Sequence record: PZ445524.1
DNA from: a phage
Strand: one strand, 5' to 3'
DNA: 64,000 nucleotides
This document shows positions 58,312 to 60,050 of the stretch, one piece after another; the stretch's first letter is position 1, and every line of letters starts with the position of its first letter. The notes under the pieces were generated by a model. The model was given only the letters and a program-made list of their open reading frames with translations. It did not search any database and was not told where the DNA came from. Position numbers and translations under genes: made by a program.

Positions 58312-59241
58312 ATGTCAGGATATAATTCTCAGAATCCAAAGGAACTCAAAGATGTCATTCTAAGACGTTTAGGGGCTCCAATTATTAATGTTGAGTTAAC
58401 ACCCGATCAAATTTACGATTGTATCCAGCGTGCCCTAGAATTATACGGTGAATACCATTTTGATGGACTTAACAAAGGTTTTCATGTTTTTTATGTAGGG
58501 GATGATGAAGAAAAGTACAAGACCGGAGTCTTCGATTTAAGAGGTTCTAACGTATTTGCAGTAACCCGCATTTTACGCACAAATATTGGGTCAATAACAT
58601 CTATGGATGGAAATGCTACTTATCCGTGGTTTACTGACTTTCTGTTAGGAATGGCTGGTATTAATGGCGGAATGGGAACGTCTTGTAATAGATTTTATGG
58701 ACCAAATGCCTTTGGAGCTGATTTAGGATATTTTACCCAGCTTACCAGTTATATGGGAATGATGCAAGATATGCTCTCTCCTATTCCAGACTTTTGGTTT
58801 AATTCAGCAAATGAACAGCTCAAAGTCATGGGAAACTTCCAAAAATATGATTTAATTATCGTAGAAAGCTGGACTAAATCATACATTGATGCAAACAAAA
58901 TGGTTGGAAATACAGTAGGATATGGAACAGTCGGTCCACAAGATAGCTGGTCATTATCTGAACGATATAATAACCCAGACAACAATTTAGTAGGTCGTGT
59001 TGTTGGTCAAGACCCAAATGTTAAGCAAGGTGCTTACAATAATCGTTGGGTGAAAGACTATGCAACAGCTTTAGCTAAAGAATTGAATGGTCAAATTTTA
59101 GCACGCCACCAGGGAATGATGCTTCCGGGCGGTGTTACAATTGATGGGCAGCGCTTAATAGAAGAAGCCCGATTAGAAAAAGAAGCACTGCGCGAAGAAT
59201 TATACTTACTTGACCCTCCAGTGGGAGTGTTAGTTGGATGA
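58312..59241 (+). CDS. 13: gp13 neck protein
   Basis: 309 aa; T4 length. Confidence 0.9.
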
Positions 59242-60050
59242 ATTATACTAAAATTTACGACTCTCTTATAGAAAGATCTCTTAAAAGAGGTCTTAATAAG
59301 AAAAAATTAGATTATTATACAGAATCACACCATATTGTCCCAAAATCCATGGGAGGAGATGATTCTAGAGAAAACAAGGTTTTACTGACAGCAAGAGAAC
59401 ACTATTTTGCACATGAGCTTCTTTTTAAAATACACCGAAATTCTGAAATGGCTTATGCCTTAATAAAATTCTCCAAGGGTACAAAAGAGCAGAGAATTGT
59501 AAGTAAAGATTACGGATGGATTAAAGAGGAAACATCTAAAATTAGATCAGAAACCATTAAAAAGTTTTGGGCGAATCTATCACCAAATTTAAAACAGGAA
59601 CGAATTAAAAAAGCCGGAAAAGGCATTAAAAAAACTAAATCTTTATGGACAGATGAAAAGAGAAAAGAAGTTAATGCAAATATTCGAAAAGCTTCAGTGA
59701 AATATTTGGAATCGTTATCAGAAAACGAAATGTTAGAATATAAAGAAAGATGTTCTAAACAGATGAAAGATTTTTGGTCTGAGCTTAAAAGTGACCCCCA
59801 AAAATACGAAAAGTATTTAAATAAACTATCTAAGGGTCTTGCAAAAGTCGAAAAGAGAAATTGCCCGCATTGCGGAATTATATGTGATGTAGGAAATTAT
59901 GGAAAATACCACGGCGATAAATGCAAAGTTATCACGGGTGTATCTCATAGCAGAGAAAAATTAAAATGCCCGCACTGCTCTAAAATCATGGATAAGTCTC
60001 ACGCTAAAAGATACCATTTTGACAATTGCAAATTTAAGAAGGTCGAATAA
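59238..60050 (+). CDS. HNH homing endonuclease inserted between genes 13 and 14
   Basis: 270 aa; [32 protein letters not shown] core; two C-terminal CPHC...H...C zinc-finger-like modules; paralog of 21556-22335. Confidence 0.75.

Follow-up and report, generated by a model that had tools for sequence, protein, structure and literature searches.

A Mob-family HNH endonuclease gene between neck genes 13 and 14 of Tequatrovirus phages: a probable homing cassette

Introduction

What is a nuclease gene doing between two genes for the neck of a phage? The question is posed by a 64,000-nucleotide stretch of Tequatrovirus DNA (sequence record PZ445524.1; hereafter the window, to which all positions refer), in which a 270-residue open reading frame (ORF) at 59238-60050 on the + strand separates gene 13 from gene 14. 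An initial annotation had taken this ORF for a free-standing HNH homing endonuclease that has invaded the late operon. We find that it is, with little doubt, a free-standing HNH endonuclease gene of the Mob family, as indicated by Pfam, PHROG and homology. By analogy with T4 MobE, it probably belongs to a homing cassette at 59221-60050 that would spread in the manner modeled for that enzyme, and we put the probability of this at roughly 0.7. The case is built on family membership, presence/absence polymorphism among related phages, a strictly linked block at the end of gene 13, and an ancestry of the insert that is recent in comparison with its flanks. The window itself is identical to no record in the phage collection searched; the closest record over 24 kb is vB_Eco_NR1 (97.6%), and T6 is 97.0% identical.

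The gene 13/gene 14 junction

The upstream host gene, gene 13 (58312-59241, + strand), encodes the 309-residue neck protein or head-tail adaptor gp13, whose counterparts in T6, T4, and T2 are annotated as gp13 or head-tail adaptor Ad2. The downstream host gene, gene 14 (60052-60822, + strand), encodes the 256-residue neck protein or head closure gp14, which matches the Pfam family T4_neck-protein with E = 1.3e-138. Both proteins are full length in the window, and the endonuclease is a separate cistron between them. Its ATG and the TGA stop codon of gene 13 (59239-59241) share the tetranucleotide ATGA at 59238-59241, and one nucleotide, a T (60051), separates its own stop codon TAA (60048-60050) from the ATG of gene 14 (60052). 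The sequence thus confirms the arrangement given in the initial annotation, with a 270-residue ORF filling the gap, an ATGA overlap on one side and 1 nt on the other. The adjacency of genes 13 and 14 in T4, stated in the initial annotation, is borne out in both T4 and T2, where gene 13 ends ...GTA GGT TAA and gene 14 starts after a 1-nt spacer.

Other kinds of mobile element were considered for the locus. An intron-encoded endonuclease or an intein was rejected; Rfam shows no intron at the locus. A transposon or insertion sequence was rejected as well, the expected flanking inverted or direct repeats and, according to Pfam, a transposase domain being missing. The endonuclease gene has no terminal repeats.

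The N-terminal nuclease domain

The Pfam HNH_4 model matches residues 25-52 of the endonuclease with 25.6 bits against a curated cut-off of 22, and the HNH_4 and HNH matches together span residues 23-52. PHROG 655, 'homing endonuclease', matches the protein with E = 1.8e-52; a search of NCBIfam matched no family. According to Pfam and a family alignment of 46 sequences (A3), the HNH catalytic motif extends over residues 25-59 (59310-59414, + strand) and comprises E29, H31, H32, G40, N46, E54, H55, and H59. All of these residues, together with T51, are invariant in the alignment. Fold matches to the HNH region are weak (Cas8-HNH, 8w1p_G; GVE2 HNH, 5h0o_A), and a sequence search of solved structures returned only marginal HNH matches, with E of 0.08 or higher.

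The similarity of the N-terminus to a mobD-like ORF at 21556-22335, part of the initial annotation, proves to be real, with 46% identity over 117 residues (E = 2e-31). That description needs two corrections: the ORF belongs to the minus strand, and it is mobD of T4 itself, the region being 98% identical in DNA to nrdC.11/mobD/mobD.1 of T4. Identity to T4 MobB is 49.5% over residues 1-111, and no similarity to either MobD or MobB was found beyond about residue 117. The endonuclease, MobD, and MobB all fall into PHROG 655.

Distribution of the insert

The comparison of 13/14 junctions called for by the initial annotation was run with a 1.7-kb query across the junction, which matched 506 phage records. 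The query is fully covered in 47 of these (~9%), a count that includes some duplicate GenBank/RefSeq entries of one phage. Carriers include T6, FL12, F26, NR1, EC128, CrRp10, YUEEL01, SHFML-26, fPS-2, and pSe_SNUABM_01, and their hosts belong to Escherichia, Shigella, Salmonella, Yersinia, and Citrobacter. The other records, T4, T2, RB55, RB9, and slur02 among them, match in the flanks only. These flank matches lie 892 nt apart in non-carriers as against 1701 nt in carriers, a presence/absence difference of 809 nt. The ORF is therefore present in some of the related phages (T6) and missing from others (T4, T2, RB55, RB9), rather than common to all. No partial or intermediate copy of the insert occurs among the 506 matching records. 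An exact insert-free junction is found in 339 records, and 446 have it at 95% identity or more. A scan of IMG/VR with gp14 gave 15 loci with few close relatives, and GenBank records were used instead.

Carriage differs among like-named isolates, namely Pu-Krd-SF1/2/5/6/7 versus SF3 and BYEP01 versus BYEP02, and likewise AV119/120 versus AV121/122 and ESh24/30/36 versus ESh26/29; isolates with common name prefixes apparently come from the same studies. The ORF is already labeled 'homing endonuclease' or 'HNH endonuclease' in many records (YP_010067306.1 in RefSeq T6). Searches of the accessible literature returned descriptions of MobA-E and of Seg genes and nothing specific on the 13/14 endonuclease locus. 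The gene is annotated by homology in public records, and apart from its C-terminal finger pair it behaves as expected for its kind.

Insert boundaries and the recoded end of gene 13

The boundaries were defined by aligning 11 carriers (the window and 10 records) with nine non-carriers. The right boundary is seamless, the sequence TAATATGGCT... being common to both groups. On the left, divergence begins at 59221, 17 nt before the endonuclease ATG, and takes in the last six codons and the stop codon of gene 13 (59221-59241, + strand). Carriers have GTGGGAGTGTTAGTTGGATGA here (GTG GGA GTG TTA GTT GGA TGA), as opposed to TTTGGAATTTTGGTAGGTTAA in insert-free phages (TTT GGA ATT TTG GTA GGT TAA). 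The 8 substitutions in these 21 nt cause F304V and I306V (conservative), convert the stop codon from TAA to TGA, and are otherwise synonymous. No variation occurs in the block among the 11 aligned carriers, or in its counterpart among the nine non-carriers; a 33-nt query for the carrier version retrieves exactly 47 records, every one of them a carrier. Polymorphisms 8-15 nt further upstream (TTA/TTG, CTT/CTC, GAC/GAT) are common to both groups.

When between-group divergence minus mean within-group diversity is computed in 150-nt windows over ±3 kb, the value is ~0 except at the junction. The block substitutions are the only fixed differences within this span, and no other site in it has an allele-frequency difference above 0.65. 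Since carriers and non-carriers are undifferentiated outside the block, the mobile unit appears to be 59221-60050, uncoupled by recombination from everything around it.

As a possible donor of the block, a gene 13 ending in VGVLVG was sought in more distant T4-like phages and not found; the endings there are FGILIG, FGILVG, VGILIG, and similar. With up to three mismatches allowed, the intact empty junction does not occur anywhere in the window. By analogy with the polymorphism at the MobE nick site, the block is the only candidate for a self-immunity polymorphism.

We note that a 13-nt near-repeat, GAAGAATTATACT at 59194-59206 and GATGAATTATACT at 59237-59249 (12 of 13 positions, 43 nt apart), brackets the 21-nt block, and that its second copy holds the endonuclease start codon. 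The repeat could be due to chance, or could be microhomology from the original insertion.

Diversity of the insert and its neighbors

Across the same 11 carrier genomes, the endonuclease ORF has a nucleotide diversity (pi) of 0.0096, with 20 synonymous and 13 non-synonymous segregating sites. The corresponding values are 0.0475 for gene 13 (107 synonymous and 7 non-synonymous sites) and 0.0295 for gene 14 (57 and 4). Synonymous polymorphisms are thus five times fewer in the insert than in gene 13 of these genomes, and this low diversity relative to the flanks indicates that the insert copies have a much more recent ancestor than genes 13 and 14. The ratio of non-synonymous to synonymous sites in the insert is ~10 times that of the neighboring genes, and the endonuclease ORF evolves under relaxed constraint. 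Nine of the 11 copies keep the 270-residue frame and all catalytic and finger residues. The remaining two (SHFML-26 and vB_EcoM_FN; loci L024 and L027) share a frameshift caused by a 1-nt deletion in the A7 run at 59626-59632, which truncates the protein at residue 153, and each frameshifted copy is annotated as two 'hypothetical proteins'. Low diversity, relaxed constraint, frameshifts, and a patchy distribution make up the pattern expected for a homing endonuclease gene passing through invasion, spread, and decay.

Expression signals

The consensus late promoter TATAAATA does not occur on the + strand of 51875-61705, and with one mismatch allowed there is no convincing match in or just before the endonuclease ORF. 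No + strand terminator was found in the ORF, the terminator-like matches there lying only on the opposite strand. At the left end, the recoded block changes GGT TAA to GGA TGA, which makes the overlapping ATG, and TTT GGA A to GTG GGA G, which makes the sequence GGGAG (59223-59227), 10 nt upstream of the endonuclease ATG and a plausible ribosome-binding site (Shine-Dalgarno sequence) for this gene. At the right end, the last endonuclease codons AAG AAG GTC GAA form a Shine-Dalgarno-like AAGAAGGT for gene 14 (60036-60043, + strand; 8 nt before the gene 14 ATG), which stands in for T4's own TAGGT. The lack of promoter and terminator, together with signals at both ends, suggests a promoterless cassette that would be expressed by read-through of the late operon and translationally coupled on both sides. 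Promoterless, read-through, coupled expression is on record for mobE and for six further endonuclease genes of T4 (PMC2988022; PMC2790892).

Further upstream, a perfect hairpin with a GNRA-type tetraloop, GGGGCC-GCAA-GGCCCC (58284-58299), fills the intergenic space between wac and gene 13 and lies just ahead of the ribosome-binding site of gene 13. It may act in the stability or the processing of the late RNA.

The helical middle region and the C-terminal fingers

The AlphaFold model computed with alignment A3 has a mean predicted local distance difference test score (pLDDT) of 90.6 and a predicted template modeling score of 0.52. It begins with an N-terminal ββα unit (strands 28-32 and 47-51, helix 52-66), followed by five helices and two fingers, each built from a hairpin and a helix. 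The middle region, residues 90-203 (59505-59846, + strand), is modeled as five long helices spanning residues 90-112, 116-135, 139-159, 162-185, and 187-203. These helices occupy the position where most homologues have NUMOD3 DNA-binding repeats. PF07460 (NUMOD3) is recorded on most homologues, and the endonuclease itself has no NUMOD3 match at E ≤ 0.01.

The two C-terminal CPHC..H..C modules described in the initial annotation are present, both of the form CPHC-x12-H-x3-C with identical spacing, at residues 209-229 and 244-264. Module 1 (59862-59924, + strand; C209-x2-C212-x12-H225-x3-C229) is recognized by its motif and is modeled as a β-hairpin plus helix; module 2 (59967-60029, + strand; C244-x2-C247-x12-H260-x3-C264) is supported by motif and alignment. 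The pair is also visible in the DNA as a 24-nt repeat, 105 nt apart. In the 46 aligned sequences C244, C247, H260, and C264 are invariant, giving the motif CPHC...HFDNC, and P245, R258, F261, D262, N263, and K265 of this last finger are near-invariant (consensus CPHCGK...RWHFDNCK). Family members have one to three such fingers, most of them with NUMOD3 repeats in the middle of the protein. In its spacing, CX2CX12HX3C, the module corresponds to the classical TFIIIA-type finger, with Cys in place of the final His. Modeled alone, the finger pair reaches a pLDDT of 90.1, and its best Foldseek matches are mostly DNA-bound tandem C2H2 arrays (CTCF, Tramtrack 2DRP, ZFAT, BCL11A), all non-significant at E 0.2-1. 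No Pfam finger model reaches its cut-off on these modules, and a full-text literature search for the finger motif found no paper.

These features invite a tentative and more specific reading, possible but on balance doubtful, in which sequence and model are taken together. The target would be recognized by a pair of classical-type C2HC zinc fingers (CPHC-x12-HFDNC), and the cassette would be a self-contained translational-coupling unit, the rewriting of gene 13 creating a start codon and a ribosome-binding site and removing the recognition sequence at one stroke. As part of the same proposal, the CPHC finger module may be conserved without change in hundreds of HNH-NUMOD3 endonucleases from phages and metagenomes, with no Pfam model describing it. 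Only a base-perfect excision could then remove the cassette, because its end is the ribosome-binding site of the essential gene 14.

Relatives of the endonuclease

Within the phage collection, 47 records are at least 95% identical to the protein and all others fall below 60%. T4 MobB, MobD, and many ORFs labeled 'homing endonuclease' match over the ~110 N-terminal residues only, at 40-50% identity. Full-length relatives with 28-36% identity are found at other T4-like loci, near gp46/47-like genes, denA, nrdA, gene 39, gene 2, uvsW, and gene 4. The next relatives in a large protein database are 57% (P0002) and 52% (P0003 and P0004) identical. The genes for P0002 (contig L037) and P0004 (contig L036) each immediately precede a T4_neck-protein gene; compared with gp14 of the window, the gp14 encoded there shows 71.5% and 69% identity, respectively. 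In contig L037 the overlap with gene 13 is again ATGA and the spacer ahead of gene 14 again 1 nt, and these divergent versions also end in Shine-Dalgarno-like sequences before gene 14 (GTGGGGT in L037, AAGAGGT in L036). The occurrence of 52-57% identical versions at the same junction in divergent T4-like phages implies that the endonuclease lineage is old, faithful to its site, and evolving faster than the host genes. The idea of a free-standing homing endonuclease in the late operon stands as far as the Mob HNH family, the missing intron, the polymorphism, and the low-diversity insert with unlinked flanks are concerned; the word 'invaded' needs a qualifier, since the association with the site is old.

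Contig L036 (Logan contig SRR33991139_568291) also has an extra 198-residue ORF between genes 14 and 15, at 1621-2217, which has no Pfam hit. The Tequatrovirus loci examined have a short spacer at this place.

Among T4 proteins, MobD and MobB are the closest paralogues in sequence, with the similarity ending at ~117 residues. The mobD gene of the window (21556-22335, - strand) encodes a 259-residue protein that has the N-terminal nuclease domain in common with the 13/14 endonuclease and, unlike it, lacks CX2C fingers. The MobD and MobB loci are nrdC.11/mobD.1 and alpha-gt rather than 13/14. The mobD region is polymorphic too: of the 681 records that match the 2.5-kb region, coverage of the query reaches 80% or more in 47. 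At least two genes of the Mob family are thus present in the window, and their distributions among relatives differ.

Other endonucleases at or near the junction

A different, Seg-type ORF of 211 residues lies between genes 13 and 14 in Escherichia phage F2 (MN864145; L035, 3020-3655). It is found in F2, SQ17, and 11 further records, 13 in all at ≥99% identity, and has an I-TevI-type DNA-binding domain, a NUMOD3 match, and 33% identity to SegC/SegD. The ORF begins with the first four codons of gene 14 (MATY), and its 3' end overlaps the gene 14 start. In G37-3 and in Klebsiella phage RCIP0009, relatives with 55-60% identity adjoin the neck gene; vB_EcoM_005 has a 60% relative, and the annotation at the matching position there says no more than hypothetical protein. 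This element, of the GIY-YIG family, is like the HNH endonuclease in occupying the 13/14 site and being polymorphic there, but encodes an unrelated protein and is joined to the flanking genes differently. With two unrelated endonuclease genes at the same place, the 13/14 junction appears to be a recurrent landing site. This supports the junction or nearby sequence, which is highly conserved and essential, as a good homing target.

Farther downstream, in Salmonella phage pSe_SNUABM_01 (MN580668; L026, 6370-7701), the annotation truncates gene 17 (large terminase) at locus position 7263 and places a 'putative endonuclease' ORF after it, which suggests another endonuclease insertion, inside gene 17 and 3 kb downstream of the 13/14 cassette.

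Proposed homing mechanism

The best-described parallel is T4 MobE, which lies between nrdA and nrdB. MobE is expressed from a promoterless gene, makes a strand-specific nick, and differs between carriers and non-carriers in a polymorphic patch at the nick site (Wilson & Edgell 2009, PMC2790892). The 13/14 endonuclease resembles it in its Mob N-terminal HNH domain, in being a promoterless cassette that would rely on upstream transcription, and in its position between two conserved genes. MobE is also polymorphic among the T-even phages, and as at 13/14 a short nucleotide patch in a neighboring gene separates carriers from non-carriers. The two differ in their C-termini, that of the 13/14 endonuclease having two CCHC fingers, and in their surroundings, a late structural operon as opposed to nrd genes. 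Moreover, the MobE nick site lies ~120 nt inside nrdB and MobE has an internal terminator, in contrast to the 13/14 endonuclease, in which no + strand terminator was found. There is a likeness in architecture to I-HmuI as well, and the mechanism expected on this model is nicking followed by recombinational repair. I-HmuI, an intron-encoded HNH nicking endonuclease of Bacillus phage SPO1, is built in two parts in an extended arrangement, helical DNA-binding modules coming after an N-terminal HNH domain.

On this basis, the cassette would be transcribed with the late neck operon, having no promoter of its own, and translation of the endonuclease would be coupled to that of gene 13 by way of the ATGA overlap and the GGGAG in the recoded gene 13 end. 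Because the last endonuclease codons provide a ribosome-binding site for gene 14, the essential neck genes would stay expressed. In a co-infection with an insert-free relative, the helical repeats of the C-terminus and the pair of putative zinc fingers would bind the uninterrupted junction ...CCTCCATTTGGAATTTTGGTAGGTTAATATGGCT..., and the N-terminal HNH domain would nick or cut nearby, within or near TTTGGAATTTTGGTAGGTTAATATGGCT of the insert-free DNA. Recombinational repair off the carrier genome would then copy the cassette, 59221-60050, into the broken genome. Carrier DNA would presumably be spared, since the insert splits the site and 8 nt of the 21 beside it are changed. Nuclease activity, a target at this location, and an immunity role for the block are thus what the comparison with MobE leads us to expect.

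Weighing the alternatives

Several points weigh against this account. Structure searches returned weak, non-significant matches only. A co-conversion tract or a second differentiated site was sought within ±3 kb and none was found, and diversity adjoining the insert is not reduced; as no co-conversion tract is visible, the cassette may instead have spread by ordinary T-even homologous recombination. Even without drive, one would expect reduced diversity in an allele class whose frequency is 9%. The A7 frameshift could reflect real decay or a homopolymer sequencing error. Four of the 8 derived positions of the block are common to the divergent L037 version, in which the counterpart reads ATG GGA ATA ATT ATT GGA TGA, and all four lie within the overlapping-ATG and ribosome-binding features. 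Given this overlap, and because the changes build an ATG and a GGG run, the block may serve translation rather than immunity. Finally, free-standing endonucleases often cut away from their insertion point, so that the target need not be the junction.

A first alternative is an inactive or decaying hitch-hiker, a gene that cuts nothing, moves by ordinary recombination, and is kept because its deletion would remove the gene 14 ribosome-binding site and the gene 13 stop context. We consider this unlikely. The relaxed constraint (13 non-synonymous versus 20 synonymous segregating sites), the frameshifts in 2 of 11 copies, the missing co-conversion signature, and the gene 14 Shine-Dalgarno sequence embedded in the endonuclease ORF are all consistent with such a gene, and in vitro activity could not be demonstrated for MobE either (PMC2790892). 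Yet 9 of 11 copies keep the full frame with every catalytic and finger residue, and a frequency of 9% across hosts and continents combined with recent common ancestry is explained more easily with drive.

A history of loss is harder still to accept. An ancestral gene at 13/14, not or no longer mobile and deleted in ~90% of phages, would agree with the 52-57% identical versions at the same junction in divergent T4-like phages and with flank diversity that is equal in carriers and non-carriers. However, the absence of the insert always takes the form of one clean junction, free of remnants and matched exactly in 339 records, and many identical, precise deletions that also reverted 8 substitutions would be needed to produce it. 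The insert copies are, by their synonymous polymorphism, much younger than the flanks, and carriers do not form a clade at the flanks, so we judge this history to be very improbable. We give the least credence of all to a domesticated nuclease whose mobility is secondary to a phage function such as competitor exclusion, late DNA processing or packaging, or counter-defence. The late expression predicted for the gene, coupled to the neck and packaging cluster 13-14-15-16-17, would be in keeping with such a role, and the T6 homing endonuclease SegB can serve anti-defence (PMC13096335). Against this, the gene is dispensable, because it is absent from ~90% of close relatives, T4 and T2 included, and its non-synonymous to synonymous ratio is ~10 times that of its neighbors. 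A homing cassette on the MobE model is therefore the reading we favor.

Implications

The insert accounts for a recurrent 0.8-kb length difference between Tequatrovirus genomes and raises the number of Mob-type loci among T-even homing endonucleases to six, the new one lying in a late structural operon instead of among genes of nucleotide metabolism. The conserved CCHC finger pair would be an undescribed DNA-binding module of HNH endonucleases, and if the fingers read DNA triplets in the way eukaryotic C2H2 fingers do, the family would amount to a natural zinc-finger nuclease. The locus also offers a natural experiment, with 47 carriers to compare with over 440 empty sites, a linked block of 21 nt with sharp bounds, and a second, unrelated endonuclease competing for the junction. 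As T6 (a carrier) and T2 and T4 (empty) are standard laboratory phages, target mapping, immunity conferred by the block, and marker exclusion in the neck genes are directly testable.

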